Assembly (NCBI GenBank): GCA_965178125.1 | Contig: OZ237736.1 | Location: forward strand, 434,001-498,000 | Length of the DNA stretch: 64,000 nucleotides | DNA from: Bilabrum cf. latius | Taxonomy: Eukaryota | Direction: 5' to 3' | Shown here: positions 36,853 through 61,281 of the stretch, piece by piece | How positions within the stretch are numbered: position 1 is the first letter of the stretch | Layout of the letters: the number at the start of each line of letters is the position of its first letter | The notes under the pieces: model-generated | The model's database searches: none | The model's input: only the letters and a program-made list of their open reading frames with translations | What the model was told of the DNA's origin: nothing | Position numbers and translations under genes: made by a program

Positions 36853-36953
36853 TGTTATCCGCCAAAATGTGTGTAGTTTTTATATAAGTAAACTCTATTT
36901 CTACTATATAGTAGAAATAGAGTTATCATAACTCCACATTTTGGCGGATAACA
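36853..36953. other. Left terminal 101-bp imperfect hairpin
   Basis: 19-bp outer stem (36853-36871 with 36935-36953), asymmetric 19/10-nt internal region, and a perfect 34-bp palindrome at 36891-36924. Confidence 0.95.
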
Positions 36954-38220
36954 TAAGAGGTCAATATTAACCACTTCACAACATCTTAAGCCGTAGTCCT
37001 TCATAATGTCCTTCACTTGAACATAATAATTTAATAGCTATTTATTCATATATCTACCTAATTTAATACCTTCGCGCCGTTAATGTCTATCTGTTAGACC
37101 TTTACTTTACTTAATCTGTTGAGTGAATCCCTAGCCTAAGTCTTAGGATATGCCCGCCCGAAATTGCGGAAATATATAGTCATTTAAGAATATATGTTCG
37201 CAATTCTGGGCGCGTAGGTGTATTGAGTTTTATATTATGATTTGGTTTTAAGTATCAATTGACATTTACCACTTTAGAAAATAACTAAATAAATACTTAA
37301 AGAGATTGACAGAAGTATTAAAGTCTTTTTAATACTTCCAATGAAAAATTTAAATTAATAAATAAAACTAAACTAATATATCAACTTAATTTATCTCTTT
37401 TTTTATTACTTGTCAATCTATACTTAAATAATTGAATATTTAAATATAACTAGAAGGAGATATTAATCACTTTATAAAGTCTTTTATATGTCATCTCTTC
37501 AAAACTTCAAATATAAGGGTATCCCCTTAAAAATACATCCTTTAATCTATCGCCCGAAATTGCGGTAATATATAGTCATTTAAGAATATATGTGTGCAAT
37601 TCTGGGCGCGTAGGTGTATTGATTTTTATTTTTCATAATTCTTTAAATATGTTAAAGTCCTTTGTTTGAGTATATGATATAAAGGAATACAAAGCGGGAT
37701 AACTTAAAAATGATAAATGTTTTGACGATGACTTTAAAATGACTCAATGAACTAGTTTATGTCAAGTGTATTACTTTGAAATGATTAATCACTAGATTAA
37801 ATGGAAAATATAGGATAATTAAATATGGTATAGTATAATACTAGCGCCCGAAATTGCGGTAATATATTAGGATATTAAGATATATTGTCGCAATTCTGGG
37901 CGCGTAGGTGTATTGAGTTTTATATTTTGTTAATTTTGACATAGTTATCTTATAGAGGTGTAATTTTGTAATAAAGATATTTCTAGTATGTGCTATATTA
38001 AATGTCCAGAAATGACGGCCCGAAATTGCGGAAATATATAAGTATTCTAGAAATTATGTCCGCAATTCTGGGCGCTTAGGTGTCTTCAATAATTAATAAT
38101 CAACTACTTCTTTATTTTGATTAATTTTTTTGACTTACCGTTCATTTTATTGACCACTTAACGGGATATCACAAAAAGACTTAACCACTTGACGAGATAT
38201 TTTAAAATAACTAATAATAA

Positions 38221-38351
38221 ATATGACCGCCCCAAATTGTATCTCCAGATATGACCGCCCCAAATTGTATCTCCAGATATGACCGCCCCAAATTGTATCT
38301 CCAGATATGACCGCCCCAAATTGTATCTCCAGATATGACCGCCCCAAATTG
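38221..38351 (+). repeat. 28-bp tandem repeat x4.7 in the left TIR (mirrored at 59783-59913)
   Basis: Unit atatgaccgccccaaattgtatctccag, which contains the left arm of the dispersed palindrome. Confidence 0.95.
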
Positions 38352-38422
38352 CGGAAATATATAAGTATCAAGAAAATTATGTTTGCAATTCTGGGCGCTC
38401 ACCCGTATTCAATTTTACATAT

Positions 38423-38632
38423 TCACTAACTCATACCACTTGAAGTGGTCCATTTGATCTTGTGTTCATATTTAGAATGTCCTTTAACTTGTATCAATGT
38501 ATTGAGTACTTCTTCTAACTAGTCCTTAACAAATGATTTTGTCTTATGATATGTCTTGGTAGTCTTCACCTATTTAATAACTAATTTACAAGTCTTACCG
38601 ACAATATACTAAGTTAATAAATCTTGTATCAT
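38423..38632 (-). CDS. Small hypothetical viral protein (69 aa, TAG=Gln)
   Basis: ATG to TGA, open only if TAG is sense; divergent from 38641. Confidence 0.35.
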
Positions 38633-38640
38633 AATATATT

Positions 38641-39048
38641 ATGTATGAGATAATTATTGATGGATTCAAATATAAACCCTCTACTCGTAGAAATAAGAAA
38701 TATGATGTATTCAAAAATGGTAAGTATATCACTAGCTTTGGTGATGCACGATATGCTCAATACTTTGATTTGATTGGTAAGTATGGAGATAATAACCATA
38801 TTGACCCTAAAAGACGACGCCTATACTACCGAAGACACGGGAAGACTACCGATACTAATAGCTCAAAATATCACAGTCATAAGATCTTATGGGGAAGTGA
38901 TAATGCTATTAAGGACTACTTAACAAAACTAGCCAATGGAGTATTAGATGTAAAAAGGTATGTTAAAGGGGATACTTTGGAAAAATGGTTAGATGACTAT
39001 AGGTCTAAAGTGGACGCAAGACTCAAGTATTTGAAAATACTGGATTAA
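38641..39048 (+). CDS. Conserved small giant-virus/virophage protein (DUF5754-like)
   Basis: STRRNKKYDV..FGDARY..D..H.DPKRR..Y..RH..S.KILW pattern; ends TAA. Confidence 0.65.
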   Translation: MYEIIIDGFKYKPSTRRNKKYDVFKNGKYITSFGDARYAQYFDLIGKYGDNNHIDPKRRRLYYRRHGKTTDTNSSKYHSHKILWGSDNAIKDYLTKLANGVLDVKRYVKGDTLEKWLDDYRSKVDARLKYLKILD

Positions 39049-39080: not shown

Positions 39081-39710
39081 TTATGTGGATGTCTTAGCCT
39101 AATATTCTTTGTCTCTTTTCTCTTTGGCTCTAAGTCTTCTTCTTTCATTCATTTTGTCTTTGTTCCTTTGATAATATTCTTGTTTTTGCTTTTTTATTTT
39201 GTCTTTATTCTTTTCTAAGTATTTCCTTCTCTTGTCTTTATCTTTGAAGTAATTGGTTCGTTTCATTCTACAAATTTTCTATTTATTTACTTCATTATAT
39301 TCTTTGAGATACTACTTAATCTTGCTTTTGTTCTTCTGTCTATACATTTTATTTAGTGTACTCAATTTATCTTTATTGTCTTCACGATACTCTTTTTTGG
39401 TCCTACCAGCTATGCACTTATTCACACACTTATTACTTCGTATATGTCCACCTTCTATTTTCTTTAATTCTTCTTTGTTCTTGCATGGGCAATTCTCGAC
39501 TAATTCTATTCTTACATCTCCTAAATCATAAATATCAAATGATGAGACAAACCCTTTGTATTTTGTTCCGTTCTACTTGTAATACTTATAATCTTTCGTA
39601 TGTCCTCCTTTTCTTTGACTTAAAGTCTAACAAGTAGAACCGTAATAGACTTTTGAAGTGTCATTAAGTGAATATAACTTGTAAATCTTAGCTTTAGAGT
39701 AGTCAGGCAT
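39081..39710 (-). CDS. GIY-YIG endonuclease with basic helical C-terminus (missed by the ORF track)
   Basis: MPDYSKAKIYKL..VYYGSTC*TLSQR..H..RIELVENCPCKNKEEL..EG.HI..CVNK.IAGRT; ends TAA. Confidence 0.9.
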
Positions 39711-39818: not shown

Positions 39819-40349
39819 ATGTGCTATAAGTGCAAAAATTTCATAATCAATAAGCTAAATATTACAGACTGGGATAAGATAGCCCCTTTATTAGTCCCTG
39901 ATGGTAAGAGAAAGAACGAATAGAAGTGTATCTGTTCACATCCTATTAAAACAGTCTTTCTTGTAAAATATCCACCTACTGGAGATATATTTGATTTAGG
40001 TTCTGAATGTATTAATAACACTTTTAACTCTGATCATAAAGTCTACAAATACTGTATGTATAAGACTTGTGATGTATGTAATAAACAAGTAAAGAGAAGT
40101 AGCTGGAAAAGTCATATTAAATCCATTAAACACGAATTAAATAAAGACATATTAAAAGATAAGAGTAGATGCACTGATTGCGATGAGTTCATTGAAAAAC
40201 ATAAATATAAAAAGACTTGTCTTAGTTGTTATAATAAAAAGAGGAAATACTCACAATGTAAGAAATGTGAAAAGTATCTTATTAAACCAGGAGCCACTTT
40301 CTGGTTTTGTTATGACTGTAACTAGAAGAGAAAGAAATATAAGAAATAA
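39819..40349 (+). CDS. Cys-rich zinc-finger protein
   Basis: CICSHPI..LGSECI, CDVC..HIKSIKH and several CxxC pairs; two TAGs; ends TAA. Confidence 0.75.
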
Positions 40350-40709: not shown

Positions 40710-42365
40710 ATGACTAATAAAGGCAAGACATACACTAGAGGTAAAATATCTTACACGTATGGTGATGAACCGACAAAAAATCAAAAAGATAGTGATAATT
40801 TAGAAGCCACTATTAAGGGACTACTTGATAAAGGATTTGAAGAGGTACCAACTACCAAAGCAAGTATTAAAAAAATACCTTTATATTCTTATGTATCTTA
40901 TGTAAGTAATATCAAGGGAAAGCCACTATTTAGAAGAGGTGGGGTAATTAACTCAATATAGAAGGATGGAGACTATTTCACTTTATATAACTTAGTGAGT
41001 CGTGTTCATTTTAGCGTTCAATAGTCTAACCTAGTTCGTCTTTTTTATAAGATGACTAAAGCTTAGACGAAAAAACTTAATAAACCAACCGGTAAATTAA
41101 TTGAAGTAGAAGATGAGGACGACAAAGACAAATTTAATTATAAACCAATATTAAAGAAACTATATTATGAAGAAGGTAATGTAGTCAGTCGTGATGCGTT
41201 ATATGACCTAGCTAGACAAAAAGATAAACGTATTAAAAGACGACAAGTAGAAAAGTGGTTAAATAACTAGATGCTCCACCAATTGACCAAAAAACGACCT
41301 AAACAGTCAGCAGTAAGTTCTTTTGTACCTACTAAGCCTTTCTCAATTTACGCATTGGACTTAATAGACATGCAAAAGTATTCAGACACTAATGACGGCT
41401 ATAATTGGATATTAAATATAATGGATATATTCACAAAATACCTATGGAGTATTTCATTAAAAGATAAGACATTAGTTAATATAATTCGTGAGATGAAGAA
41501 ACTATTTAAGAAACCTAATTGGAGAAAACCGACTGTTATGTTAAGTGATAATGAGTTTAATAAAGAGGCATATATTAAATTTATGAATGACAATGACATA
41601 AAACCACTATTCACCATCGCAGGAAATCCATAGTCTAATGGTGCAGTTGAAAGACTTAATAGGACTATAAAAGAATAGATTAGAAAAGACTTTGCTATTA
41701 AGAATGACAGTGATGGTGTTTGGCATACGTCATTATAGAGACTAGTAAGAGCATATAATAAGAGAAAACACAACACTATAGGAATGTCTCCACTAGAAGC
41801 AATGAAACCCGAAAATTTAGAAGTAGTTAGATCTAGAATTGAAAATAAGAAATTATCCAATAATTTCGACGGGAATGATAAAGATCTTAATGTAGGGGAT
41901 AGAGTTAGAGTATTACTTGAGAAGAACAAGTTTAAAGGAAATTTATTTAATTGGTCTAGAGAAGTCTTCACTGTTAGATAGAAGACCAAACCAAGAAATC
42001 CTAAGTAGAGGATTAAATATAAAGTAATGGACAAAGAGGGAGAACCTCTTACTGGATTCTTTAATGCTTCACAGTTATAGAAAATAGACAATGTAGAACA
42101 CGAAGATAAGGTAAATGATGACATAGACAAGGAAAGTGAAGAGCCTGAAATTGATAATGTTGAAGGTTTAGAAGTAGAACCAGACACAATAGAGAAGTTT
42201 TTAGATAAAAGACAAAATAAAGATAGACTTATTGAATATTTAGTCAAATATAAGGGATATTCTAATAAGTTTAATGAATGGATTACCCGTAAGAAATTAG
42301 AATAGGATTATGGGAAAGACCAAATACGACCACTTGCGAAAGACTATTCTGATAGATAGAGATAA
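40710..42365 (+). CDS. Retroviral-type (rve, DDE) integrase with C-terminal chromodomain, 551 aa
   Basis: VEKWLNN*MLHQL, ALDLIDM, LNIMDIFTKY, LSDNEF, P*SNGAVERLNRTIK, VGDRVRV, WSREVF; chromodomain IEKFLDKR..EYLVKYKGY..NEWI. Twelve in-frame TAGs; ends TAA. Confidence 0.95.
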
Positions 42366-42595: not shown

Positions 42596-43276
42596 ATGGA
42601 ATTGTTAAATATAACAAGATACAAAAATAAAGACCTTCTAAAAAGAGTAGTCAAGTTAAGTGAAAAGTACAAGTGGTCTCGTGATGACTTAAAAATGTTA
42701 TGGATTAACAAGCATTATTCAAGTTTATAGGGTGAAATAGATGATGAAGGGGACGAGATAGCAACTATAAATTTAGTGAGACAACCGTCTAAAATAGAAC
42801 CTATCTAGTTAAAACCTCCACAATTAGAACGACAATAGGCTATATTGGAAGATGTTGAATTAGATAGCGAAGACATAGAGGATAATAAAGAGGAAGACTA
42901 TTTGAATGATACATATAGTGATACAAGTAGTGAAGTAGTGAGTGAAGTCATTGAAGAGAAACCAATTAAAGAGAAACCAAAACCAAAAATCAATATTAGT
43001 GATCTTACAGTGAGTGATAAACCTGAATATGTTTATTGTGTAGAGATTAATGATACAAAGGTATATTTTAACAAAAAGAATACATAGACTTATCCTGATG
43101 CTTTAAGAAGAGGTAAATCACACGCTGATAAAATGAGAAAGCGAGTATTAGGACATATTCATTTTGATGAGACCGATATGTATGACAGCAACTTATGGTA
43201 TGCTAAAGTGTGCTGGGGTGATAGTGATAAAATTCATGATAACTTTACAAAGTTTAAAAATATCTTATTAAAATGA
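42596..43276 (+). CDS. Hypothetical protein with acidic middle region; C-terminus weakly resembles 38641
   Basis: ATG 42596 to TGA, in frame across TAGs. Confidence 0.7.
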
Positions 43277-43295
43277 CCACTATATATATAGGTAA

Positions 43296-43802
43296 ATGAA
43301 AAACACAATTTGGAAGTTTTTAAATGAATACTTTGATGTCTTTAGTTTAATACTTAAAATACGAGACGAAAACCCTAGTGATGTCATAAGTACTATAATA
43401 GCAATGTATGAAGAGAGCGAAATAGAAGACCCAAAAGAGATCCATAAACATATGAGTGAAATACGTCATAACTTGGAACTTAGATTTAAAACAAAGTATG
43501 TTGAAGTCCTAAGCACCGATCACGATGACAAAGCAGAAAGCTATCTCCATCTTAATAATATATTATGTAATATTGAAGGAGAGCAATATGTGGAGGATAG
43601 CAAAATCAAGATGTCCGAGAAAAAACAAGTATTTATAAAGACTTACGGTGATGTGGATAAATTCAACGAGACTGTCCAAGAGATGGAACAAGAAGACGAA
43701 AAGACTAAAACAGGAGTAGAAAAAGAAATAGATCAAAAGTTAAGTCTATTATGTAATACTTCTAAACAACCAGACAATATTTGTCTAGATTATAAATTGT
43801 AA
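43296..43802 (+). CDS. Hypothetical viral protein, 168 aa
   Basis: Clean ORF ending TAA, preceded by CCACTATATATATAGG. Confidence 0.75.
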   Translation: MKNTIWKFLNEYFDVFSLILKIRDENPSDVISTIIAMYEESEIEDPKEIHKHMSEIRHNLELRFKTKYVEVLSTDHDDKAESYLHLNNILCNIEGEQYVEDSKIKMSEKKQVFIKTYGDVDKFNETVQEMEQEDEKTKTGVEKEIDQKLSLLCNTSKQPDNICLDYKL

Positions 43803-43929: not shown

Positions 43930-44568
43930 TTATATGGAATAGCCAAGGTCTAGAGTCGAACGAAGCTTATCGTGAAGCTATTCGTAAGTATTATAAATGT
44001 AATAGCTAGAAGGGTTCAATTCTTTGATATATGAGTTACGGTCTTCTAACATAGACTTCTATTTATCTACTTTCTTATCCTTTAATGTCTTCTAGAATAG
44101 TGAATTAGATGGAAGACATACAACTATACTTTCTTTTTTAAATAACTCATTAGCTAGACTTAACTCTTTAGTAAAAAATATTACTCTCTTCTCACTACCT
44201 TCATTCAACCAGTTATCTTTTACCCATTGAAGGGCTTCTTTACTGGCTTTTCTATTAAGTATATTATAATTACCCCAATCACTTTTTAACTTACATTCGT
44301 CTAGTTTCATAAGTAATTCGGGCTCCTAGACATATACTCCTAGAGTACTATCTAAATCAACAAGTAAACAGTCTTTAGAACTAGACCGTAATATTTGACA
44401 AGCGGTAGACTTACCACTACCTTCAGGCACACAGATACATATTTTTTTACGTTTATGTAAAGGTTTATCCCATAACCACTACCAACAAGACATACCACCA
44501 GAGTATGCTAGAGGTAGTAAGACACTTAAACCTCCTACAACGACACTGCTTGAACTGATTCCATCCAT
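43930..44568 (-). CDS. P-loop NTPase/kinase-like protein with hydrophobic N-terminus, 212 aa
   Basis: VVVGGLSVLLPLAY, then VPEGSGKST..LLVDLD; TAGs read through; ends TAA. Confidence 0.7.
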
Positions 44569-44611: not shown

Positions 44612-45334
44612 TTATCCTGTTAAGAAAATACAAGGTACGACTTTATATTCTACTCCATTAGCATCAGTAGAAGTACCACTTGAAAAGTCTTCATCTACTA
44701 GAGCTTTTGCTACAATAGTCTAATCAACAGAGACTGGTTGAGGATTAGGCGCGTAGACATATCCACTATCAGAGCTATTTATTAAGTAGTCACCCGCACT
44801 TACATCTCCTCCATTTTTATTTACTTTCACAGCTCCATCACCTAAAGATGCCACTAGGACTTTACCATCATCATGGTGTTCTCCTACATATACTCCAAAA
44901 GGTGGTGAATGTTGAGATGCTTGACTTACGACATATTCATTAGTTGTGGGTCCTTTATTAACTACACTATCAAGAGTAACCACTGACCCAATACCAGCTG
45001 GTAAACTAGAAGCAACATCACTACAAGATGCAACATGTGTACCGGTAAATGATAAGAAGTTGGTTGCTGTCATAGTACTGGTTTGAGTTCCATCACCTGC
45101 GACATTAATTGAGATAGATGCACCTGCTGATGCTGAGTTTTTACCTATTCTCCATGTGAAAGACTTAGCATCTTCATTAGTACCACTCATAATATAGGGT
45201 AGTGATTGACCATTGAAGTTAAGTCCAAAGTTAGCGGCTCCATCAAAGCCTTCTGCTTTAATTGATTCTACTTCAATAGACTTACTCTTTAATTCATATT
45301 CATTTTTGTTTAAGAGATTGTATATTCCTGCCAT
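44612..45334 (-). CDS. Putative fibre/virion protein with a peptidase-G2/intramolecular-chaperone-like C-domain
   Basis: SFTGTH..GSVV..FGVY..VASLGDGAVKV..GDYLINS..GY..*TIVAK..PCIFLTG; ends TAA. Confidence 0.6.
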
Positions 45335-45577: not shown

Positions 45578-47191
45578 TTAAAGACTTCTTAACCTATTAT
45601 CCAACCAAGATATTAGAGTATCAAGTCTCTTATTTAGACCTGAACCTTCACCAGTCTTACTTTCACTTGCTCCACTAGATGATTGACCTTGTGCTTCTTG
45701 TTCTTGTTCTTCCCGTTCTTGTGCTGCTCGTGCTGCTCTTGCTCTTGCTTCTTGACCTTTACCAAGATCTTCACCTGCATCGTTTGCTACAAATTCACCA
45801 TCTGGTCTTTGTTCTAATAATGTCCCTTCTGTTTCATCATCTATAGGTTCATTACCTCTTGCAATCTATTCAGCAGCTTCATTAGATAGACCACTTAAAG
45901 CGGCCTGTCTTCGTAAGTCTGGATCTCTTTGTCTATTCGTCATTAGTACACCAGCAGGTGATGAAGGAGTCTTCTGTTGAGGTGCTTTCTCTGTTATACT
46001 TTTAGATCTTTTGCGTCTTTGCGTCATTTTTCTGCTTCTTTGTGCTGCCATCAATTGTGCCATCTATGAGTCTTGTCTTTCACGTCTTTGTTTCAACTTT
46101 TCTTCTCTTTCAGCTTTTTGAGCACTTGTAAAATCTCTTAACTATCCAAAAGCTCTTCGTCGTGATGAATTATCGGCCATACTTTTAACCTTCTTTTCAT
46201 TTTCAACAAACTCTTTACCCATTCTAGTAATCCCTTTCGCTCTATCATCTGCGCTTAAGTCAGTATATCGTCCAGACTTAATTTCATTAAATAGTGGTTT
46301 AAGTTCAGTATGGTAATCCATAGTCGACAACGCTTTACCTTGATAAGTCGGTCCAAGTAATTTAGTCAGTTTGTTTATCATTTCAAGAGCACTTGTATTA
46401 CCTTTTGTTTGGGCAATCTTTCTAAGTGCATTACGTCGGGCTAGCATCCTTCTTTCATCAAAATCATATACTTGCCTGTTTAAATTAAGTCTTCTTAGAC
46501 TAGTTAGCTTGTCAAAATCATCCTCAATTCTTTCAAATGTTTTACTTGGGTTACCTTTTTCATTTTGTCTTCTTTTAATTAAAAGAATACGTGTAGCTAG
46601 GTCATTTAATCTCTGCTTACTCATACCTTCAATTGTTTCAGGTTTAACATTATTATCAATAAGAAGTTGTTGGAGCTACTCTTTGCTTAAGTCACCTTCT
46701 AGGTCTTCTATATCTTTAGGTAAATTATCAATTTCTTCCGCTTCAATAAATAAGTTATTTAATGCGTCGTTAAGTTTTGACTCAGCTTTACCTTTTTGAA
46801 ATAGTGTATTAGATGAGCTCATATATGGAATATTCTATATCATCTTAGCAATAGCTTCAGCATCTTCATCAAGTAGTTCATTATCTTTGGCTAGTCTTAC
46901 AACTTGATCAATATCAGCTACTTTATACTTTTTACCTTTCTTGCTATTCTCTTTAACTCTTTTTAAAGTCCTTTTCATAAGATTTGCTATTCTTTTTAAT
47001 TTTCTCTTTTCTTCTAATGGCATAAAGTCCTCTTCTAATTGAATCTTTTGTTTTCGTTTAGCTTCTCCTATAGCTGCTCTTATGGCTCTCTCTTCGTTTC
47101 TTACCTTTCGTCTTGCTTGACTTGTAGGGGCTCTACTTTCCACAAGTCCATCGAGTAAGTCTTCCAATACTGCTGTTCTTTTTTTAGACAT
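45578..47191 (-). CDS. Large basic coiled-coil protein, 537 aa, possible core protein
   Basis: ORFs 46835, 46142 and 45866 are in one frame and split by TAG; ends TAA. Confidence 0.75.
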
Positions 47192-47230: not shown

Positions 47231-47674
47231 TTACATACCATTTTCTTTTAATATTTTACTTGCTTCTCCTAGACTTACGCCATACTTCTTCATTACCGCA
47301 CTCACTAATTTACCTCTTGCTTTAGCTTTTGGATTAGGTTTCCTCTTACGCTTAGCCTTTCCAAGTCCTACAGTCTTAAGTGCAGCATCAAGAGGGATAC
47401 CAACTTCAGGGGCTACAAACTTAAGACCTGTTCGTATTGCCTTTCCTACGTTACTTTTAATACCTTTTTTAATTGTTCGCCCTACTTTCTTGAATTTTCT
47501 ACCTACTTTTTTAAAAAAACGTCCAACTTTTGAACCACCTTGAACACCATTCATTTGATAGTCTTCAAATAATTCAAGTAGTTTTTGCTTAAATTCGTCT
47601 TTTAAATTGTTGACTTTGGCATTAGAGGGTGATTTACCTAGTTGCTATAGTCTTTGTCTTATGAAATCGTCCAT
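47231..47674 (-). CDS. Very basic putative core/DNA-condensing protein with a GG processing site
   Basis: VQGG|SKVGRFFKKVGRKFKKVG, with C-terminal RGKLVSAVMKKYGVSLGEASKILKENG resembling a motif common in virophage basic proteins. Confidence 0.7.
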
Positions 47675-47708: not shown

Positions 47709-48527
47709 ATGGTTAAATTAACAAAGTAGTAGCTAAAGTATTATTCACGATTTGATAATAAGATATTCAAGTCTTTTAAAATAAATAGAAGTGATATTTA
47801 TTTAAATGGTTCATATTCATTTACTCATAATATGCTTTCACTTTGGGCTGGAGACATAGACCTATACTCTCCCGTTAAATTGTCTGATGTCAATAGTGTT
47901 ATAAATGAATTAAAGACCTTAAGAGGTAGTAGATTAATACATATTTATAACGTTGAATATGATGATAATGGCGTCTCTTTAGATACATTTCTTGATACTA
48001 ATAGACCTAAAATATTAAAATCTTTAAAATAGTAGAATAATCCTATGATATTCGTTGAAAGTTGGGTCTATACTGGATATATTGAAGAGGTTAGTATATT
48101 ATATGATATTGGAGGTAAGATATTGAAAATGAAGCCTAAACAAGTAGCAGATAGGATGATAGATGACATAAAAGACTTACAAAAAGAACGAAAATATTTC
48201 AAGATATTAAAAAGACTAGATGTTATATATGACGAATTAGGGCAAAAGAAGAAACAGGAAGAGATTGAACAACTTATAAAGAATCCCGATGTAGGCTTTC
48301 TTTACTTGACTATTACAAGATTAAAAAGTTTATTACTTCCAACAGTTCCATTTAAATTAAAAAATAGAGTTATTGATAGACTTAAGAATGATGTACGTAA
48401 ATTAGGACTTATTAAACCAGTTTATCAATACTTTAATACGTTCAATAGTAAAGATGTAAGTATTATAATTAAATATTTAGAAGACTAGCTCAATAAAAGG
48501 GTCGTTAAATTAGTTTCACATAATTGA
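47709..48527 (+). CDS. Nucleotidyltransferase-fold protein (Sputnik V21-like)
   Basis: LNGSYS..WAGDID motif and KYFKILKR; two TAG-TAG pairs in frame; ends TGA. Confidence 0.6.
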
Positions 48528-49388: not shown

Positions 49389-50456
49389 ATGTCATTATCA
49401 TACGATGAAATACCAAATAGTCATTTAGTTGCTTTAAGAGAATACAAGCACAAGAAGAGGAACAAAAGCGTCTTTTTTAGTGAAGATGTAGGGGAAAAAG
49501 TCATAACTCCAGAAGATATAAGTGATGATTTACTTGAAGAGTATTATGGAAAGAGAGCAATTAAATATGAGAAGAATAAAAAAGCATTACGTGAAGAGAT
49601 GTGTAAGCTAGTGAATGGAAATAAAAAACTAGTTAGAAAGACTAACGAGTTAAGAATAGATGATAAGAGTTAGTTTGAAATAGTCCCATTCTTTGATGAT
49701 GAGACCAAAAGACAAATACACTATTTAAGTGGTTAGGCTGGTGCTGGTAAGTCTTATATTGCTAAGTCTTTACTCAAGTATTATCATATGTTCATTCCAA
49801 AGAAGAGGGTTTTAGTCATTACACCAGTACAGGAAACAAATCCAACTTATTTAAAATATGGTAATTTTATTGATATTGATAAATTAGTAGCAGTAGATAG
49901 AAACGATAGTTATGATGACTTAATGAGGAAATACAAAGAAGAAAAGATATTCTTTAGGTAGGAAAAGAAGTCATTAGAACCTCATGAATTAATTAAAAGA
50001 GAGATAGAGATAGAAAGAATGAAACCAACAAGTAAAGACAAGACAAAGGCATCATTTACCACTACTCCATTGTATGAAGAATGGGCAAAATAGGGTCCTT
50101 CTGTGGTGGTATTTGATGATTATGAAGCCTTAAACGGTGATAAAAAGTAGAGAGCGTTATTCTTAATTAAGCGTATAGGTGAAGTTGGAAGACATAGCTC
50201 AACAAATATGATAGTTATAAGTCATTTAACGAATGATTATGCGAATACTAGGTCAATAGTCATGGAAAGTCATAATATTATTTTATTTAAGAGAAATCTA
50301 TGGAAATTTAGCAAATATTTAATGAAAGCATATTTAGGATTTGATGCAAGTCTTATAAATCGTGTTTATAAATTGTTTGGAGAAGGTAATAGATGGCTAT
50401 GTATTAATAAGACTTATAATTTTATCACTTGTCCTAAATAGATGTTCGTATATTAA
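49389..50456 (+). CDS. FtsK/HerA-type (A32-like) DNA packaging ATPase
   Basis: Walker A YLSG*AGAGKS, Walker B VVVFDDYE, EVGRH, ISH, TRSIVMESH, YLGFD and RW; ends TAA. Confidence 0.92.
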
Positions 50457-50475: not shown

Positions 50476-51024
50476 ATGGATATAACCACTGCATTAAGTC
50501 CTGAAGAGGTACAAAGACTATACTTTACATTTACAAAGTAGCATATACCAGTTATAATGTATGAAGAAATAAGTGATACTAATAACATCAGACAATTTCT
50601 AGATGAAAATCCTTTATTTGTCCTTTATTATCCTAACTTAGTAGAAGGAGCAACAATGAGCGGTCATTATACTGCGGTCATATTTAACAAATCAAAGAAT
50701 ACTCTTTATTTTTGGGATAGTTATGGTCAATTACCTGATACTCATATTCCAGTTGTAGGTGGAGTCATAGACCCATAGAAGCTATATGATAGAAGTAGTC
50801 TTCTAATAGATCACGTATTAGATGCTGGTATTAATGTTGACTATTCAAATCAAAAGAATCAACTTATATCTAATAACTCTGCCACATGCGGGAGGTGGTC
50901 AGTGCTCAGACTTCTCTTTCATAATTTAACGAATGATTAGTTTAATAGTCAATTAAAGAAGGCTTTTAAAAAGTATGGAGGAGGACTAGATAATGATGAA
51001 CTTATTACTTTGATAATTAGTTAA
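50476..51024 (+). CDS. Virion maturation cysteine protease (Ulp1/adenain-like)
   Basis: SGHYTAV, YFWDSYG, NQ..TCGRW catalytic motifs; ends TAA. Confidence 0.93.
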
Positions 51025-51384: not shown

Positions 51385-52311
51385 ATGGTAGAGATTCAAG
51401 AACCAGATATCTTTTATATTAACTCATAGGATACTATAACATCTATTAATACTAATAGACCAGTATCAATACATGAACAGCGTCAAGGTAATATCTTGAC
51501 AAATTCACAAAACTACTTATTATCACTTGACCGATGGACTCTTAAATGTCGTATTCCTTTATTTGTAGCAAGTAAAGAAGTAAAGAATAGCGATAATTAG
51601 TCAATTTATAAGATGTCGTTTGTGAAGAAGAGTGATGGAACTACTTACACTCGTAATATTGTCTTAACCAAGTCGTTATATTATAGTCTTAAGACCTTAT
51701 CTAATGAATTTAATAATACTCTTAGTGATTTATGTGGAGATGCTAGTATTCCAACTGATAGTATAGTATTTGAATATCACGGTAAGACTAAAACTTTTAG
51801 TTTCACCCGTTTAGCGGCTTTTACAAGTGCGTGGACTTTAAGTTTTAACTTTCCTTTATTCTCTATATTTGAGACATTTGAATATGATGATGAAGGTAAA
51901 GACATTAAAAGTGATACTTATATAAATCTTTTAGATGGATACAATGAATAGAGTGCTTCTACCTTAGATTAGTTTCCTACTATGGAGTATATTCAAATTA
52001 TTAGTCCATCTCTTCCAATACTTCCAGAATTTACGCCATCATATAAAAGTACATCTAGTACAGAGATACAAAGTGAAAATATCTTAAGTGATTTCAAGAT
52101 AGACAATACAACAGGAACGAGTTTTATTAAAATAAACTTTAGTAGTGGAGGAAATCATAGATGGCAATAGTTCTATAGATCAGCATTTAATAGTTATAGT
52201 ATAGTACCGTATTTTAGAGATACTTTTGGAAACTTATACGAAATACCCTTTACTTTTGGACAAGGACTTAATATAAAAGCTCTATTTAAAAGTAAAAAGT
52301 TAATAACTTAA
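51385..52311 (+). CDS. Minor capsid (penton) protein, 308 aa
   Basis: PDIFYI..E.R..IL..NYLLSLDRW..IPLF at the N-terminus; ILSDF; RDTFGNLY..NIKALFK at the C-terminus. Lies directly upstream of the MCP. Confidence 0.85.
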
Positions 52312-52353: not shown

Positions 52354-54240
52354 ATGTCTGATATGGATAATGTACCTGTAGCAGCACAAAGCAAAGTCGT
52401 AGATGACGTCTCAGAACTACCAGTAACTCAAATAGCTGACGAAAAACTCAACTTTGTGGGTGATAGTCAAGCTATTACTCTAGGAACTACCCTTGGATAC
52501 TCTTCCAAGTTCCAAAACCACTATGAACCAGATGGTGGTAACTCTAGCGCAACTAATGCATTTAGAAGTAATTACACTTTTGTCGTGCCATCAAATCAAG
52601 GAATGACTGACAGTAATCCCCGTCTAAGAGTTTCATTTGACGTATACATCTATGATAGTTAGAACAATGGAGCAGTAGCTCAAACTGATATCGTCAATAA
52701 GGTAGCCCCTTCTACATTTATGGTAAATTCAATGATCACAAGTTCCACAGTTAAAATGGGAGACTTATCTCGTAGTTCATCACCTTATCAATTAGTCAAT
52801 TTAATAGCTAGAAGTCTTGACCGTGCCACTCTAGCACAAATAAGTCCTGTCTTTTAGGCTGATAACACTTGGGAATTTAATACTGCCGCAAATGGTCTTG
52901 CTAAGTCTGTCCTTCAATGGGGTGTAAATGATGATAGTATTATGGAAGCTCGCGGTCCTGGTAAGAATTACCGCGCAACACTTGAAAAAGTGGATGCTAA
53001 TACTCCAATACCTAATAATAATGTAACACCAACTCAAGACTATGTCAAATTACATATTGAAATCTCTGAAGCACTTCTTGCACGTCCTTTCCAATATATG
53101 ATGGGTGGTAATGCTAGACCTTTTGTTGATCATCCACAATTAAATGTTAATTTACAAATGAGAAATAACTTAATTGATAAGATGTTTAATACTTCAAGTG
53201 ATTGGAATGGAGACTATGCTTTTGCTTTATCCGATTGCTAGATCCATTTTGATGTCTTTACTTATAATACTCATCTTAACTTCTTGAAGAAAGTACCTAA
53301 ACAAATATTCTACAACTCTGTTGACTTTGAACTACATGAAGAGCCTAAACTTGATAATCCTATCACTACTAAAGGTGTCCATACTTTTAATAATTATCAA
53401 CTTTAGACTTGCCCTTCTTGGTTTGCTGTGTGCTTAGTTGATTCTCAATATGGAGAAGCTAGTGGTACACCTCATAGAACACTTGCCATTAACAATATTA
53501 AAGTACAACTTAGGTCTTAGGGTTCTATTTTAGGAGAACTTACACAAGACGATATCTTTAGACTTAGTGAAAGAAATGGATCAAATAGTGAGTATGCTTC
53601 TTTTACTAACTTAGATGTAACTGTAGGAGGTGCTTCTAAAGTATACGGATCTAATGGCTGGCTCTTATTTAGACTTAGTGATTTAAATACTCCTGAAACT
53701 ATTCAAAGCAACAGTGCTGACCCTATTAGTATTCGTGTTCAAGTAGCCTATGACGAACCCCCAACCGCTGCTATGTCTCAAGGATATAAAGCTCAATTAT
53801 TCTGTGCCTATGACAAGATTATCGTGAATACTAGAGGTGCCGCTATTGAATGGCGTGAAGATAGTGCTTCTGTTGACCCTGAGAAAGTGGCTAAACCTTC
53901 TAATTATACATTTTCTAATATGAACTACTCTAAGAACGTATTAGGTGGAAGACGTCGTAAAGTGATGCAATTCTTTAAGAGAGCCTTTAACAAAGCTAAA
54001 GACTTAGGACGTAAAGTGGTAGACTTTGGAAAGAAAGCTAAAGCTAAATTTGATAAAGTGAAACCAGCTCTTCGTAAAGCAAGACAAGCAGTAAGTGAAT
54101 ACTTACCCGATGAAGTGAATGACTTAGCTGAACGTGTTGGAGCAGGTCTTTTAACTAGTGGTGGAAGTCTTTTGACCAGTGGAGGGAAGAAATTAACTAA
54201 GGCTCAACTTATGAAACTTAGAAAGTAGCTCAATATGTGA
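52354..54240 (+). CDS. Virophage-type major capsid protein (double jelly-roll), 628 aa
   Basis: Three track ORFs in one frame; FMVNSMITSSTVK, ARG, ISEALLARPF, NYQL*TCP; basic C-terminal tail after VLGG; size typical of virophage MCPs; ends TGA. Confidence 0.88.
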
Positions 54241-54427: not shown

Positions 54428-54850
54428 ATGGCAGCAGTATCACCGTGTGAAGACTTACTTTATATGGAGTATTCATTCTTATTCTTACCACATAGAGAAG
54501 ACCCAACACTTAAATCTCAAAAGGTTTACTTAGATGATGAATTTGAAGGAGACCCAGAAGAAATAGTAATAGATAAAGACTAGATACAAGTAAATAATAG
54601 AGGTCATATAAAGACATATGTAAGTGAAGGAGGCTTTACAAAGTTAAAGGTAGGATAGATAATTGAAGAGATGGAGCAAGAGGTGCGTAATTAGAATGGT
54701 ATTCATTATGATTGTATTTTTTATCATAAAGTTGAACACGACACGAGCACAGATATTTATAAAGTAGTATGGGGGTGGTATCCAGCAGACTTTCCAACAA
54801 ATGGATGCGACCCTGCTATCTTGTATAAGAAACCCCCTAATATGGATTAA
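54428..54850 (+). CDS. Hypothetical viral protein, 140 aa
   Basis: ATG follows the conserved promoter-like block; three TAGs; ends TAA. Confidence 0.7.
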
Positions 54851-54992: not shown

Positions 54993-55382
54993 ATGTCAGA
55001 TAAAGTAGATTTAAAAATATCGTTTTCTCAAAGTCTTGTATCAAGTGTAAACCTTGATTGGGATGGAATAGGTAAGATGTTATGTGGAAAAATCACAAGT
55101 AAGATAGAAGGAAATGAGATAGTGTTAAGACAAATAGGTCAACCGACTCCAAAAGATGGAATGATGGAGTTCTCATATACGACCGACTATAAAGCAAATC
55201 AAGTTTTTGAATTACTTAAAGACTTAACTGATGAAAGACAAGACGCGATTATGGGATACGTTCAGTGTAAGTTAAGTGATAGCAACAGGAAAAGAAGACC
55301 ATTAACTGAAGAAGATCACAGACAAATGATTCTGGATGCTATGGATAGGAGTGTTAAAGAATATAAAAAACATATGTCATAA
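54993..55382 (+). CDS. Hypothetical viral protein, 129 aa
   Basis: Clean ORF starting MSDKVDLKISFSQ. Confidence 0.75.
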   Translation: MSDKVDLKISFSQSLVSSVNLDWDGIGKMLCGKITSKIEGNEIVLRQIGQPTPKDGMMEFSYTTDYKANQVFELLKDLTDERQDAIMGYVQCKLSDSNRKRRPLTEEDHRQMILDAMDRSVKEYKKHMS

Positions 55383-55449
55383 TTAAGTCTTAATAATAAA
55401 GTCTTAATATTAAAGTTATTAATATTAAGTCATATCTATGTAATAAAAA

Positions 55450-55770: not shown

Positions 55771-55935
55771 GTAAAAAATATTATATTCAAATAAATTTAA
55801 AAATTCAATACACCTACGCGCCCAGAATTGCGGAAATATATCTTAAATAGCTATAATATTACCGCAATTTCGGGCGGTCATATCTTAAGACTAGTTTATT
55901 ACTTTCGCCAAAAAATATCCACTATATATATAGTA

Positions 55936-56286
55936 ATGTCAGATAAAGAAGATATCAAAATTGAACTATCTCAAAATTTTATAGATGAATGTCTTGTTAA
56001 AGGTGTAGGTGTCGATGATGTAGTCAGTAGTATAGGTAAAAGTATTGAGAATCACTTTGATAAATATGTATGGATGAAACCAAAAGACAAAGGTGATGGT
56101 TATCGTTAGAATGTCTTTAGTTTTAAATTCGACAATATTATCAAGAAACTCGAAAGTACATTGGAACAGTTAGAATATGAAGAGCAAGTGAAACACGTCT
56201 AGGAGCTGATGTATCGTGTTGAAAGAAGTGAATGTGAAAGGAAGAAGAGAGAAGAAAAAATTAAAAAGACAAAAAGAGACCACTAA
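55936..56286 (+). CDS. Hypothetical viral protein, 116 aa
   Basis: Starts MSDKEDIKIELSQ; two TAGs; ends TAA. Confidence 0.7.
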
Positions 56287-56348: not shown

Positions 56349-59147
56349 TTAATTTTGTTGTTCTAGTGGATCATTATCCTCATCAACAAATAAAGCGGGG
56401 TCCAAGTCAACCTCTATCTCTTCATCGGGTAATTGAACCTCTTCATCATCAACAAATATATCTACTTCACGAGTCTTTTTCTTGTTAGACCAGATATATT
56501 CCATCTCATCAATAATATCCTAATTAAATTCTACATCATAGTTAATTTTCTTTTTCTTACAAGTCATAAATATGTCTTTCCCAAACATTGATTTATATAC
56601 TTTAAGTATTTCGTAATAGAGACCTTTATCAGTGGATAGGTCAACTTTACTTCTTCTTTGGCAGTCATACACTGTCCTATATTCATCTGTTAAGTCTTGA
56701 TCTAATACTTTCTTTTTGATATTATAATCAAGATTAGTTCTTTTAAGACCCAAAGTATCAATCATCTTATTAAGTAAGACTAATTTTCTAGAACTAGACT
56801 TAGCATTGATAATATCAAACTCGCCTTTATTAATTGCTTTCACAAGTAAGTGTTTATCATCTTGTCTAAAGAATTTATTGAAATTAAATAAATTAGATAA
56901 CTTACCTTTATTAATAAAGTACTCTTTGTATTTGTCAATATCACCTTCATCTAAGTCTAAGTATTTATTGATCTTCTTGACATTAAGACAATTAATATCA
57001 AAATTTTCAAGTTGTTTTTCTTTAATGGTATCTTTGATTTCTTTATCCTTACATCTGGTGATCTTAACAGATAAATCATAAGACACGTCATAACCGGTAT
57101 CAATTAACTACTTGATCATATGTAATTTAGGGTTTGTCTTATAACAATCTACCTTGTAAAGATAATTACGATATAGTTTCTTGAATATGATTTTAACTTT
57201 GCTCATTTCTTCTTCTACTTTGTCTTCTACTTCTACCTCGTTGAAGTCGGGATATGTATCACTGACAAATTTAACTAATTCTTCGTAGTCTTTTAAAGAG
57301 GTAGCCATAAAAGATTTAACTTGTGAAAGACTTTCATATGTGCTAGATCGTCCTTTCTAGTAATCAAAAAATATAGTGATATGTGATGGGTTTCTACATC
57401 TGTTAAGCTATTGAACCATTTGGGGAGGTGTGATAGTATGACCTTTGAAATAACCAAAGACTGGTCTAGTCATAGTGCTATCTATCCCGTAAATGACTTT
57501 AGGTGAGAAGATAATGATATCAAACATATCCATATCATAGTCTTTGTCTTCGCTTTCTGCTGTAAGTATTAAGATTTTATTTAATTTCTTATCTTTCTCG
57601 TTATCTATAATTTTAAGACTAATTAACTCATTGATTATATCAGCTTTTGTCTTACTATCACTAGCAAGCATAAATTTCTTGTGTTTCATTAACTCATCTC
57701 TAAAAGTCTGTTCGTCATTAACAAATACAGTTTTGGTGCCCTTGAACCTGTTTCTGTCATTCCTAATATATTGATAATCTAATTTTAATAATTCTAAGAA
57801 ATATAGAGCATCTTGAGATAAGTCAGCATCTGCTACTATGAACTACTTACAAGTGGTAAGAGCACGAATAAGAGTAATGAAACTCATTGGTCGCCTACCA
57901 TATAAAGTCGTAGAACTTAAACAGTGTTCTAAGATACTATTAAACTCATCTAAAAAGACAATATAATCCTTAAAGTTATAATTGCTAAGACTAACAATAC
58001 TTTCAGGAGTAATAACAATACTATCACCCTATTTGTATTTATGGTCTTGATAGAATTTAGTTGATTTTGGAAGACTACGCATCTATTGCTTACCTAATAA
58101 AATACGACTAACAACTGATAAAAAGCTGTCATCTACTCTATTAAATAAATCATTAGCAGCAGTTGTCTTTCCAGAACCAGCCCCCGACTTAACGGCATAG
58201 TTGATACCTTTCTTAAAGAATTTAATATAACGACCTTTGTCGTCAGCAGTCAAATATCTACGGTCAATCTTCTAATTGACTTTCTTGACTACTTTATTCT
58301 TGAATATCTTGTATCGATAATATAGGCTAAGTCGTTTCTTTTCACTATCTAACTAATTAAAGAACCATTCAACACATTGAAAAGTGGAATTTTCTAATAA
58401 TCGAGTAAAAATTATCTTGTTCTTAGTCGACTAATAGCTTTCTACGTCTTGTTTGCTCCATTCATCAAATATATCATATACCTTATTACCATCTACTGGA
58501 TTTAAGTATTTAGCGATATAACTTGTAGCTCTACAAACTAGATGCCAGTTATATGAATTAGAATAATACTCTTTACCTAATTGATATAAGTATTGTTTGT
58601 ATTCTTCGGGTTTAATCATATAACGGTAGTCTTCAGCTGTAAGTTGTGGTGAATAGATATTTTGTAGTATGAACATCTTGACGTCAGTTGGTATTCTTTT
58701 CACGGATGTCTTTTGTATTAGTTCGTATTTCTTACCGTTGATAGAGCTAGGAGGACACATGATAAAGCTATCATTTGTGATCACATCTATATGTTCTTTT
58801 CTATTTACTGACCTCTTACTAAACTCTTCTTCATACTTAAAATACAAATGATATCCATTGGGAGACTTGACAGTGTAAGTATTCATCTCTTGAATAAACT
58901 TATCAACACTACCATATTCCGCAATAAACTTACCATTTTGAAATTCAGTTTTATTTTTCTCTTTTTCACAATCTAAGTCAAGGACAAAGAAACCTGCACG
59001 TCTTCCAGTTAGTAATCCAACATTAAGATTTGACTTTCTGGTGATAAGTTTAGTAGATTCCAAATTCTACCAAGACTTAATAAGTGGTTGTTTAGAGTTG
59101 TGAGCTATTGAGAAATAAACAGGGTTAGATATGTGTTCGGTCGTCAT
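56349..59147 (-). CDS. Primase-polymerase (PrimPol) + PriCT-like + SF2 origin-binding-protein-like helicase, 932 aa
   Basis: NVGLLTG..FFVLDLD..TVKSPNGYHLYF..IDV..IMCPPS; FDEWSK; KSGAGSGKT, VSRILL, FLDEFNS, VADAD, FSPKVIYGID, MVQ*LNRCR; ends TAA. Confidence 0.9.
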
Positions 59148-59177
59148 TCTAGTATATACTATACTAAAGATAATTTT

Positions 59178-59390
59178 TTAAGTCATTTTCTAGACGCACT
59201 ATTTTGGCTTAAAGGATTGAGATGGATTTTCGCGCACAACTAGAGTATTTTTAAATTTTTCAATTTCTGCTGGGGATTTCCCGATTAGTAAATAACTTAT
59301 AGTCTCTTGAAACTCTATTGGTAAGTCTTGTAATTGATGTATTGGTTTATTGATAACTTGATTATTTGATTTGGTATCTATTAAATCCAT
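59178..59390 (-). CDS. Small hypothetical protein, 70 aa
   Basis: ATG to TAA across two TAGs. Confidence 0.5.
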
Positions 59391-59422
59391 TATTAATAAT
59401 ACTATAATAATAGAATATATTT

Positions 59423-59632
59423 TTAAGTCTTATTTAATCCTTCTGTATCTGGTTCATCCTTAACCTGTTTTCTCTTCTAATAGTACCCCTTCCATTTCTC
59501 TTGATTCTTTTGGTAATATTTCTATTTAGCTTTTTTAATAGCTTCTTTCTTTTTGGTCTCCTATTCCTTGAGTCTTTGATAATCTTCCATAATGTCTTGA
59601 ACCTATTTTAATACATCTTTAATATCTGGCAT
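59423..59632 (-). CDS. Small basic helical protein, 69 aa
   Basis: AIKKAK*KYYQKNQEK motif; ends TAA. Confidence 0.55.
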
Positions 59633-59692
59633 TACTATAGTAATATACTAGATAAATCTTTAAGTTTTTTAAACTAGAAAATGACTTAAAAT

Positions 59693-61281
59693 AAGTGGTA
59701 TGAGTTAGTGAATATGTAAAATTGAATACGGGTGAGCGCCCAGAATTGCAAACATAATTTTCTTGATACTTATATATTTCCGCAATTTGGGGCGGTCATA
59801 TCTGGAGATACAATTTGGGGCGGTCATATCTGGAGATACAATTTGGGGCGGTCATATCTGGAGATACAATTTGGGGCGGTCATATCTGGAGATACAATTT
59901 GGGGCGGTCATATTTATTATTAGTTATTTTAAAATATCTCGTCAAGTGGTTAAGTCTTTTTGTGATATCCCGTTAAGTGGTCAATAAAATGAACGGTAAG
60001 TCAAAAAAATTAATCAAAATAAAGAAGTAGTTGATTATTAATTATTGAAGACACCTAAGCGCCCAGAATTGCGGACATAATTTCTAGAATACTTATATAT
60101 TTCCGCAATTTCGGGCCGTCATTTCTGGACATTTAATATAGCACATACTAGAAATATCTTTATTACAAAATTACACCTCTATAAGATAACTATGTCAAAA
60201 TTAACAAAATATAAAACTCAATACACCTACGCGCCCAGAATTGCGACAATATATCTTAATATCCTAATATATTACCGCAATTTCGGGCGCTAGTATTATA
60301 CTATACCATATTTAATTATCCTATATTTTCCATTTAATCTAGTGATTAATCATTTCAAAGTAATACACTTGACATAAACTAGTTCATTGAGTCATTTTAA
60401 AGTCATCGTCAAAACATTTATCATTTTTAAGTTATCCCGCTTTGTATTCCTTTATATCATATACTCAAACAAAGGACTTTAACATATTTAAAGAATTATG
60501 AAAAATAAAAATCAATACACCTACGCGCCCAGAATTGCACACATATATTCTTAAATGACTATATATTACCGCAATTTCGGGCGATAGATTAAAGGATGTA
60601 TTTTTAAGGGGATACCCTTATATTTGAAGTTTTGAAGAGATGACATATAAAAGACTTTATAAAGTGATTAATATCTCCTTCTAGTTATATTTAAATATTC
60701 AATTATTTAAGTATAGATTGACAAGTAATAAAAAAAGAGATAAATTAAGTTGATATATTAGTTTAGTTTTATTTATTAATTTAAATTTTTCATTGGAAGT
60801 ATTAAAAAGACTTTAATACTTCTGTCAATCTCTTTAAGTATTTATTTAGTTATTTTCTAAAGTGGTAAATGTCAATTGATACTTAAAACCAAATCATAAT
60901 ATAAAACTCAATACACCTACGCGCCCAGAATTGCGAACATATATTCTTAAATGACTATATATTTCCGCAATTTCGGGCGGGCATATCCTAAGACTTAGGC
61001 TAGGGATTCACTCAACAGATTAAGTAAAGTAAAGGTCTAACAGATAGACATTAACGGCGCGAAGGTATTAAATTAGGTAGATATATGAATAAATAGCTAT
61101 TAAATTATTATGTTCAAGTGAAGGACATTATGAAGGACTACGGCTTAAGATGTTGTGAAGTGGTTAATATTGACCTCTTATGTTATCCGCCAAAATGTGT
61201 GTAGTTTTTATATAAGTAAACTCTATTTCTACTATATAGTAGAAATAGAGTTATCATAACTCCACATTTTGGCGGATAACA
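59693..61281 (-). repeat. Right terminal inverted repeat (1,589 bp)
   Basis: Reverse complement of 36853-38441, except for the orientation of the terminal hairpin interior. Confidence 0.95.
61181..61281. other. Right terminal 101-bp hairpin, a direct copy of 36853-36953
   Basis: Same + strand sequence as the left hairpin (tgttatccgccaaaatgtgtgtagttttt...ttggcggataaca). Confidence 0.95.

Follow-up and report, generated by a model that had tools for sequence, protein, structure and literature searches.

The closest described relatives of the element presented here are mavirus and the endogenous mavirus-like elements (EMALEs) of Cafeteria burkhardae, of which the 'mid-GC' types lack the protein-primed DNA polymerase B (pPolB) and have a long open reading frame (ORF) for a primase-helicase (Hackl et al. 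2021, PMC8547959). Viral insertions in the genome of Streblomastix strix use the code of their host, table 6, in which TAA and TAG are read as glutamine (Gln, Q), and the authors infer a long virus-host association (Bellas et al. 2023, PMC10120064). One metagenomic virophage clade has an ochre-suppressor tRNA(TTA), a possible sign of reassignment in its host (Paez-Espino et al. 2019, PMC6905037), and phages with TAG read as Gln (code 15), for example crAss-like ones, exist in hosts with the standard code (PMC9523058). We analyzed 64,000 nucleotides from Bilabrum cf. latius (assembly GCA_965178125.1, contig OZ237736.1, positions 434,001 to 498,000; this whole stretch is called the window, and all coordinates refer to it) with a virophage-like element at 36853-61281. 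It is very probable, in our judgment, that this element is a mavirus-type provirophage that is complete and was integrated recently, and that virus and host both read UAG as Gln.

Like mavirus and the EMALEs, the element stands out by its low GC content from a host that is GC-rich and poor in introns. It encodes an rve integrase, ends in terminal inverted repeats (TIRs) flanked by a short target-site duplication, and is present in multiple copies; it also has the block of genes for a putative ATPase, the protease, penton and major capsid protein (MCP) and, like the 'mid-GC' EMALEs, a primase-helicase without pPolB. It differs from them in that all its genes are in the TAG=Gln code, its host is a different, recoded organism, and its TIRs are arrays of hairpin repeats ending in a 101-nt palindrome of the same orientation at both ends, while its MCP is distantly related to that of mavirus (E=1.2e-15, phmmer). 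As in Streblomastix, the genes of a small dsDNA virus integrated in a protist genome follow the stop-codon reassignment of the host. There, however, TAA and TAG both encode Gln and the MCP belongs to the 'Metamonada' group of polinton-like viruses (PLV/Maverick-type), whereas here TAG alone is reassigned, TAA ends most genes (16 of 20), the MCP is of the virophage type (mavirus/Sputnik V20), and the element is whole, with defined ends and copies that are almost identical.

The many in-frame TAG read as Gln, and the shredding of the genes by standard annotation, are shared with the code-15 phages. In those phages the code differs from that of the host, and the phage supplies its own suppressor tRNA or factors; here, by contrast, the host shares the code and the element is without a tRNA. 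The clade with tRNA(TTA) likewise hints that some virophages inhabit hosts with reassigned stop codons, but no recoded genes are described for it in the cited part of the source, whereas the present element has recoded genes, with TAG as the codon, and no tRNA. Our literature search found neither a virophage with a TAG-only code nor a recoded giant virus; the supplementary tables of Bellas et al. 2023, Hackl et al. 2021 and Paez-Espino et al. 2019, which lay outside this search, may list more. A preliminary description of this locus, made from the letters of the sequence, had been aware of no described virophage with TAG as Gln. For the TAG-only code we found nothing that contradicts this, while viral genes that follow the recoding of their host had already been published (Bellas et al. 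2023, PMC10120064).

In-frame TAG in the element and its flanks

Read with TAG as Gln, the element holds 20 intact, non-overlapping ORFs of 116-932 amino acids (aa; 5,836 codons), which cover 83% of its unique part. The standard code leaves short fragments only, and three of the 20 ORFs uninterrupted. Seventy nine in-frame TAG were found in these ORFs, but not a single in-frame TAA or TGA, and the terminators are TAA (16 ORFs) and TGA (four ORFs), never TAG. In the two off-frames of the same ORFs TAA occurs 659 times, TGA 448 times and TAG 361 times (24.6%, 361/1,468); the chance of all 79 in-frame stop triplets being TAG is about P=7e-49. No frameshifts were found in the ORFs of the element, and ORF lengths agree with those of the relatives (MCP 628 vs 630 and 632 aa; integrase 551 vs 548 and 554 aa; helicase 932 vs 932 aa). 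The preliminary description had the core genes broken in frame solely by TAG, free of frameshifts and ending at TAA or TGA, which agrees with these counts.

What TAG encodes was estimated from alignment columns in two Codetta-style tests. One used two alignments: the primase-helicase against 149 homologues of about 30% identity, found by a HMMER library search (an 87% relative was excluded), and the integrase against 13 distant homologues (two relatives of 76-80% identity were excluded). Over 18 well-occupied TAG columns Gln scored +11.5 nats and the next residue, Lys, -6.1 (a gap of 17.6); 46 of 48 control codons were recovered; and five of the seven columns with a Q majority are encoded by TAG (hypergeometric P=1e-8). 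The other test, which has a different pseudocount scheme, adds alignments of the GIY-like ORF, the protease and the ATPase from IMG/VR loci. Here Q was best by 13 nats over 30 TAG columns, 49 of 52 controls were recovered, and seven of the 38 columns with Q as the commonest residue are TAG (P=1.8e-6). In the helicase, the TAG columns at aa 355, 435 and 580 have Q fractions of 132/147 (90%), 80/148 (54%) and 145/149 (97%), respectively. Because the alignment columns point to Gln in tests that also recover nearly all control codons, we assign Gln to TAG in the element, as predicted from sequence comparison.

The codon inference on viral genes that had been proposed as a check thus ranks Gln best in both tests, and the Q-dominated columns are enriched in TAG, the opposite of the lack of enrichment named beforehand as evidence against recoding. 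Individual motif sites fared unequally. All those listed in the preliminary description as TAG at usual Gln positions are present in the sequence: integrase aa 308 (nt 41631), aa 187 (nt 41268) and aa 457; GIY-like aa 28 (nt 39627); ATPase aa 116 (nt 49734); and helicase aa 580. Gln is indeed the usual residue at helicase aa 355, 435 and 580 and at integrase aa 187 and 457; the agreement is weak at integrase aa 308 (two of 13 homologues and one PDB integrase) and GIY-like aa 28 (three of ten) and absent at the Walker A site of the ATPase (none of four).

The Gln codons of the element are CAA (144), TAG (79, 34%) and CAG (12, 5%), TAG and CAG together making up 39%; G-ending codons account for 36% of the Lys pair and 23% of the Glu pair. 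This suggests that TAG replaced CAG as the G-ending Gln codon under AT pressure, a change from CAG to TAG being synonymous in such a code, and the combination of 34% TAG with 5% CAG looks like the outcome of long evolution or residence in a TAG code rather than a recent accident. In tblastn alignments of 80 IMG/VR contigs with helicase relatives (24-34% identity) there were three in-frame TAA and no TAG. The absence of TAG from these relatives indicates that the recoding is derived within the lineage of the element.

TAG use varies between genes: its share of Gln codons is 15-19% in the MCP and the 240-, 537- and 147-aa ORFs, and 55-75% in the integrase, the ATPase and the P-loop ORF. Capsid- and core-like genes have fewer TAG (18 of 90 Gln codons vs 61 of 145 elsewhere, Fisher P=6e-4), a hint only, as the grouping was chosen post hoc.

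The flanking host sequence follows the same pattern. Frames at 783-36533 and 62832-63998 are open at length only with TAG as a sense codon. Nine of them, with 389-2,220 codons each and 10,455 codons in total, contain 88 in-frame TAG and neither TAA nor TGA; seven end in TGA, one in TAA, and one runs past the end of the window. Were TAA sense as well, about 38 in-frame TAA would be expected from the CAA:CAG ratio, and none was observed, which argues that host and virus share a reassignment of UAG only. UAA and UGA remain stops throughout, with no in-frame occurrence in 5,836 codons of the element and 10,455 codons of the host. That the TAG code of the element matches that of its host had been claimed beforehand, and the flanks bear this out.

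Host TAG occur within poly-Q runs, for instance in three separate runs with one or two TAG each among Q encoded by CAA or CAG, and TAG has the highest frequency of CAA/CAG neighbours of all codon classes (22/176 vs 64/900 for Q codons). In a host JmjC protein with an adjacent pair of TAG (aa 178-179), one aligns with a Q of human MINA53 (PDB) and the other with Ile. Based on the poly-Q context and on one TAG of this pair in one PDB alignment, host UAG probably encodes Gln. The cactin and JmjC domains found by Pfam identify the flank as eukaryotic. The host genes are long, GC-rich and apparently intronless.

Structure and gene content of the element

The element is a low-GC island of 24,429 bp (about 30% GC) inside a host of about 60% GC; the GC profile is 0.55-0.66 across the host part of the window vs 0.29-0.36 within the element. 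It starts with TGTTATCC and ends with GGATAACA, with AATCT directly outside each end, and the repeats together with AATCT place both ends at exactly the positions given in the preliminary description. TG...CA ends and a 5-bp duplication are what a DDE/rve integrase leaves behind when it cuts its target with a 5-bp stagger, and the rve integrase encoded by the element itself would have made them. All the features of an integrating element, namely an rve integrase, TIRs and a target-site duplication of 5-6 bp, were found; a duplication of this length is typical of mavirus. The TIRs are 100% identical, and the element is complete and bounded. We take it for a recently integrated, complete and apparently active provirophage.

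The element is identified as a virophage because its MCP and penton match mavirus and Sputnik chains, its protease has a clan-CE fold, and it has an rve integrase, TIRs and a target-site duplication (Table 1). The particle genes form one block: putative ATPase, clan-CE protease, penton and MCP. The phmmer alignment of the MCP with PDB 6g45 spans query residues 68-533 (466 residues); the PDB 6g4x chains we take to be mavirus capsid proteins. For the protease, a search of PDB by sequence gave no match and the Pfam match to C57 reached 16.3 bits; the fold search alone succeeded. The AlphaFold2 (AF2) model (predicted local distance difference test score, pLDDT, 81.7) has as its top Foldseek matches NEDP1, poxvirus I7L and the adenovirus protease, all of clan CE, with E values of 6e-6 to 1e-4. 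The search for virophage MCP, penton, ATPase and protease suggested in the preliminary description therefore succeeded for the MCP, penton and protease, while the Pfam matches of the ATPase stay just below cut-off (AAA_10, E=1e-5, 25.2 bits; AAA_22, E=1.3e-5, 25.9 bits). The ATPase-like protein has both the Walker A and the Walker B motif, relatives of it occur in six IMG/VR loci, and its gene lies directly upstream of those for the protease, penton and MCP.

Table 1. Positions and assignments of the features of the element in the window.
Feature	Position	Strand	Basis and remarks
Whole integrated virophage-like element	36853..61281	.	Ends 5'-TG...CA-3'; GC profile, repeats, end sequences
Target-site duplication AATCT, 5 bp, left copy	36848..36852	.	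Direct reading
Target-site duplication AATCT, 5 bp, right copy	61282..61286	.	Direct reading
101-nt imperfect palindrome, left terminus	36853..36953	+	Direct repeat, 100%
101-nt palindrome, right terminus	61181..61281	+	Same orientation as left copy, identical
Terminal inverted repeat, left arm	36935..38441	.	1507 nt, 100% complementary; non-coding
Terminal inverted repeat, right arm	59693..61199	.	100% complementary to left arm
Small conserved protein, DUF5754-like, 135 aa, 0 TAG	38641..39048	+	Pfam PF19058 E=5.9e-6, 26.7 bits (cut-off 27.4); tblastn relatives in 13/80 IMG/VR loci
GIY-YIG-like nuclease, 209 aa, 5 TAG	39081..39710	-	No Pfam match of its own; 7/11 aligned members match PF01541, best E=2.4e-9
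Cys-rich (zinc-ribbon-like) protein, 176 aa, 2 TAG	39819..40349	+	Weak Zn_ribbon_6 match, E=0.044
rve-family integrase with C-terminal chromodomain, 551 aa, 12 TAG	40710..42365	+	Pfam rve 32.8 bits (cut-off 32.6), Chromo 30.3 bits (cut-off 25.1)
ORF, 226 aa, 4 TAG	42596..43276	+	No family found
ORF, 168 aa, 0 TAG	43296..43802	+	No family found
P-loop protein, 212 aa, 5 TAG	43930..44568	-	Weak Pfam AAA_18 match, E=0.0031, below cut-off
ORF, 240 aa, Gly/Ser-rich, low TAG use	44612..45334	-	
ORF, 537 aa, highly charged, low TAG use	45578..47191	-	
ORF, 147 aa, very basic, low TAG use	47231..47674	-	
ORF, 272 aa, 5 TAG	47709..48527	+	No family found; convergent with 48722-49243
ORF, 173 aa, 3 TAG	48722..49243	-	No family found; convergent with 47709-48527
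P-loop ATPase, putative genome-packaging, 355 aa, 6 TAG	49389..50456	+	Motifs GQAGAGKS (Walker A) and VVVFDD
Clan-CE cysteine protease (maturation protease), 182 aa, 3 TAG	50476..51024	+	H64, D81, Q129, C138 invariant (6 sequences)
Penton (minor capsid) protein, 308 aa, 5 TAG	51385..52311	+	PDB 6g41 'Minor capsid protein' E=4.8e-13; Sputnik 3j26_N 'Minor virion protein' E=4.7e-5
Virophage major capsid protein, 628 aa, 6 TAG	52354..54240	+	Pfam MCP_V20_C (PF22031) 30.4 bits (cut-off 27); PDB 6g45 E=1.2e-15
Small ORFs	54428..54850, 54993..55382, 55936..56286	+	Each after the same ~187-nt upstream block
Primase-helicase (N-terminal Prim-Pol and P-loop helicase), 932 aa, 11 TAG	56349..59147	-	Pfam Prim-Pol E=8.9e-14

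The integrase also matches PDB integrases and chromodomains; among 16 sequences D217, D239 and D280 are invariant and E314 is nearly so. The primase-helicase has 948 homologues at E<=1e-3 among 1.84 billion representatives. A Pfam scan of 19 of the 20 ORFs detected no protein-primed polymerase or PolB, the mark of Polintons/Mavericks, the replication gene being the Prim-Pol-helicase instead; the same scan found no other DNA or RNA polymerase, the primase domain aside. A PHROGs scan of ten ORFs matched no family, and tRNA and Rfam scans of the whole window found nothing. The MCP alone found no relatives in IMG/VR, and a scan of JGI metagenomes with an alignment of three MCP sequences yielded 171 pattern matches, none of them confirmed.

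The three low-TAG ORFs on the minus strand (240, 537 and 147 aa) probably encode virion or core proteins. Relatives of the 147-aa protein adjoin the ATPase and protease genes in two IMG/VR loci (L008 and L036) and lie further upstream in two others (L017 and L041). At its C terminus the MCP has a very basic tail (residues 527-628, 53932-54240), preceded by a VLGG motif that aligns with VMGG of the mavirus chain; two TSGG motifs follow downstream, and the basic 147-aa protein has VQGG. Judged by the alignment, these motifs look like cleavage sites of a clan-CE protease. The ~187-nt block repeated in the 54289-55983 region closes in CCACTATATATATAGT 1-2 nt upstream of the ATG of the ORFs at 54428, 54993 and 55936, and a similar ACTATATATATAG box is located upstream of the integrase and of the ORF at 43296. 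The ORFs at 54993 and 55936 look like paralogues.

Repeats, termini and copies of the element

A repeat of about 58 nt, composed of GCGCCCAGAATTGC, an AT-rich spacer and GCAATTTSGGGC, has 17 core hits (at 37156-38354, 43856-43869, 48582-55875 and 59780-60978) and occupies most gaps between genes as well as the TIRs. In 15 aligned copies the sequence of its arms does not vary, and the fold z-scores are -1.5 to -5.0. With invariant stems, these 15 copies contain no covariation for or against an RNA hairpin; since the arms are invariant, the repeat looks like a protein-binding or processing signal. The left TIR arm contains five copies of it along with a tandem array. This array of 28 nt x 4.7 copies is perfect, is present once per TIR (38221-38351 and 59783-59913), and overlaps the 3' arm of the hairpin repeat. 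Public run X7 is without the element, yet it includes 4-6 kb contigs (depth labels of about 460-520) in which 30-nt stretches of the repeat recur, corresponding to window positions 37795-37824, 45538-45574 and 51247-51273. Such contigs may represent another abundant entity that shares the repeat signal, possibly another virophage or a giant virus.

The 101-nt palindrome consists of a 19-bp outer stem, asymmetric bulges and a 15-bp inner stem. Folded as DNA it reaches -32.2 kcal/mol (z -13.3), and none of 200 shuffled sequences was equally good. The inverted repeat is interrupted by nothing but the asymmetric bulges of this palindrome. As the 101-mer has the same orientation at both ends, one end is 'flip' and the other 'flop' relative to the inverted repeat, a pattern known of the hairpin termini of poxviruses and parvoviruses. 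The palindromes could reflect hairpin-end replication or, equally, a 101-bp unit between two integrase-binding ends; in the literature search, hairpin-end replication was not found described for virophages. A loose end at 36935 in run X1 was considered as a sign of both hairpin orientations at one end and rejected, as the right end of the element, reversed, gives exactly that sequence.

Near-identical copies of the element were found in six of the seven listed public runs; these come from two studies, carry two organism labels, and contain 74-88% of the words sampled from a 10-kb stretch. No RNA run is among those listed. Long contigs differ from the window at 0-26 positions per 0.7-2.7 kb. 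Of 16 listed coding differences, which come from 40 of 182 difference rows, 12 are synonymous under TAG=Q, indicating purifying selection, and three of the other four fall in one codon. Two contigs of run X1 pass from the terminal repeat (36953) into GC-rich sequence unlike that of the window, and we read them as candidate insertions at other sites. Runs X5 and X6 carry the element but not the flank at 35000-36333, which is a hint, though not proof, of the same virophage in a different genome background. Compared with contigs of run X1, the host flank at 35031-36021 has 14 listed differences in about 1 kb, far more than are seen in the contigs of the element; window and run X1 may stem from different strains or haplotypes.

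Alternative readings and implications

With the standard code, which leaves just three of the 20 ORFs uninterrupted, the locus appears as a decayed cluster of pseudogenes and the in-frame TAG as nonsense mutations. Single-step mutational paths would then lead to TAA (1473) and TGA (759) at least as often as to TAG (720), yet the count is 79 TAG to none of the others (P about 7e-49, as above); moreover, there are no frameshifts, the TIRs are identical, 12 of 16 listed differences between copies are synonymous, and TAG stands on columns that are 90-97% Q in 149 helicase homologues. This explanation retains next to no probability and is effectively refuted. If TAG is sense, it could still be read as another residue, or ambiguously or depending on context. 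Lys was second in both likelihood tests, and many TAG columns are surface positions rich in K, E or N; but Q leads K by 17.6 and 13 nats, is found in 145 of 149 helicase homologues at aa 580 and in 132 of 147 at aa 355, and surrounds host TAG in the poly-Q runs, which makes a residue other than Gln quite improbable.

Recoding may also be confined to the virus in a host with the standard code, as in the TAG=Gln phages of standard-code hosts (PMC9523058). Already contradicted by the flanks, this is very improbable: host frames of 996-2,219 codons on both sides contain 4-19 TAG each and end in TGA or TAA, host frames of >=300 codons shrink from 15,056 to 3,358 codons under the standard code, and the element is without a tRNA. 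A self-sufficient polinton-like mobile element, with capsid genes of the virophage type, that moves solely by integrating and neither requires nor exploits a giant virus, would be consistent with the lack of giant-virus DNA within the window, with the transposon-like presence of multiple copies, and with the 80 IMG/VR contigs that have helicase relatives, none of which has a tblastn match to the MCP or penton. Nevertheless, the MCP and penton match mavirus, the penton also matches Sputnik, and both these viruses depend on a giant virus; the Pfam scan found no polymerase beyond the primase domain; and the occurrence of the intergenic repeat in high-depth contigs of the element-free run X7 fits a signal shared with another virus. 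We consider a polinton-like element unlikely. The core of the preliminary description, an intact integrated virophage with TAG as Gln in a host where TAG is sense too, is retained.

Several observations weigh against this interpretation. Twenty three of the 30 TAG columns are variable, without Q as the commonest residue, so that the Gln call rests on about seven informative columns, and the relatives of 76-88% identity are predicted proteins only, whose Q may itself be encoded by TAG and which are hence not independent. The ATPase is not securely assigned, given Pfam matches below cut-off, no PDB match by sequence and an AF2 pLDDT of 51.4. The host gene models are raw stop-to-stop frames, and just two of the five scanned have a Pfam domain. 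Contigs of the element have depth labels of about 340-420 vs about 32 for the host flank, depths that are not copy numbers. Finally, we infer the insertion of Gln, the inducibility of the element and its dependence on a helper from sequence comparisons.

Judged by sequence, each gene of the element uses UAG for Gln and keeps UAA and UGA as stops, and the surrounding host genes appear to follow the same code. Since the element is without a tRNA, its full-length proteins would be made only by the UAG-decoding apparatus of the host, presumably a tRNA-Gln(CUA) and an altered eRF1. As 17 of the 20 ORFs would be cut short in a standard-code cell, the virus could not leave the recoded lineage. The element would probably be silent, as are mavirus and the EMALEs of Cafeteria, until a giant virus infects the cell; this infection would activate it via the repeated intergenic motifs, and replication would then proceed at the expense of the giant virus. 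The helper, too, would need to be free of TAG stops. Both the restriction to a recoded host and the code-tolerant helper are what we infer from the code. An even more far-reaching scenario, in which host, giant virus and virophage all run on UAG=Gln, the virophage is active and code-locked, the helper is recoded and shares the GCGCCCAGAATTGC...GCAATTTSGGGC signal, and the 101-nt palindromes serve hairpin-end replication, is conceivable, though as a whole we find it doubtful.

That an altered genetic code may act as a barrier to viruses is an old proposal. The element described here would be a small DNA virus that is fully past this barrier: a third of its Gln codons are a former stop, and it would be unreadable in standard-code cells. 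The host, too, appears to have reassigned UAG alone, which is rare, and the value of the locus lies in a complete, apparently active virophage in such a rare-code host, an element that standard annotation would discard as pseudogenes. Being a virophage, it leads one to expect a giant virus that has adapted to this code as well. The system may thus allow one to measure how fast viruses track a code change of their host, whether the code limits host range, and whether defence by provirophages functions in a host of this kind.

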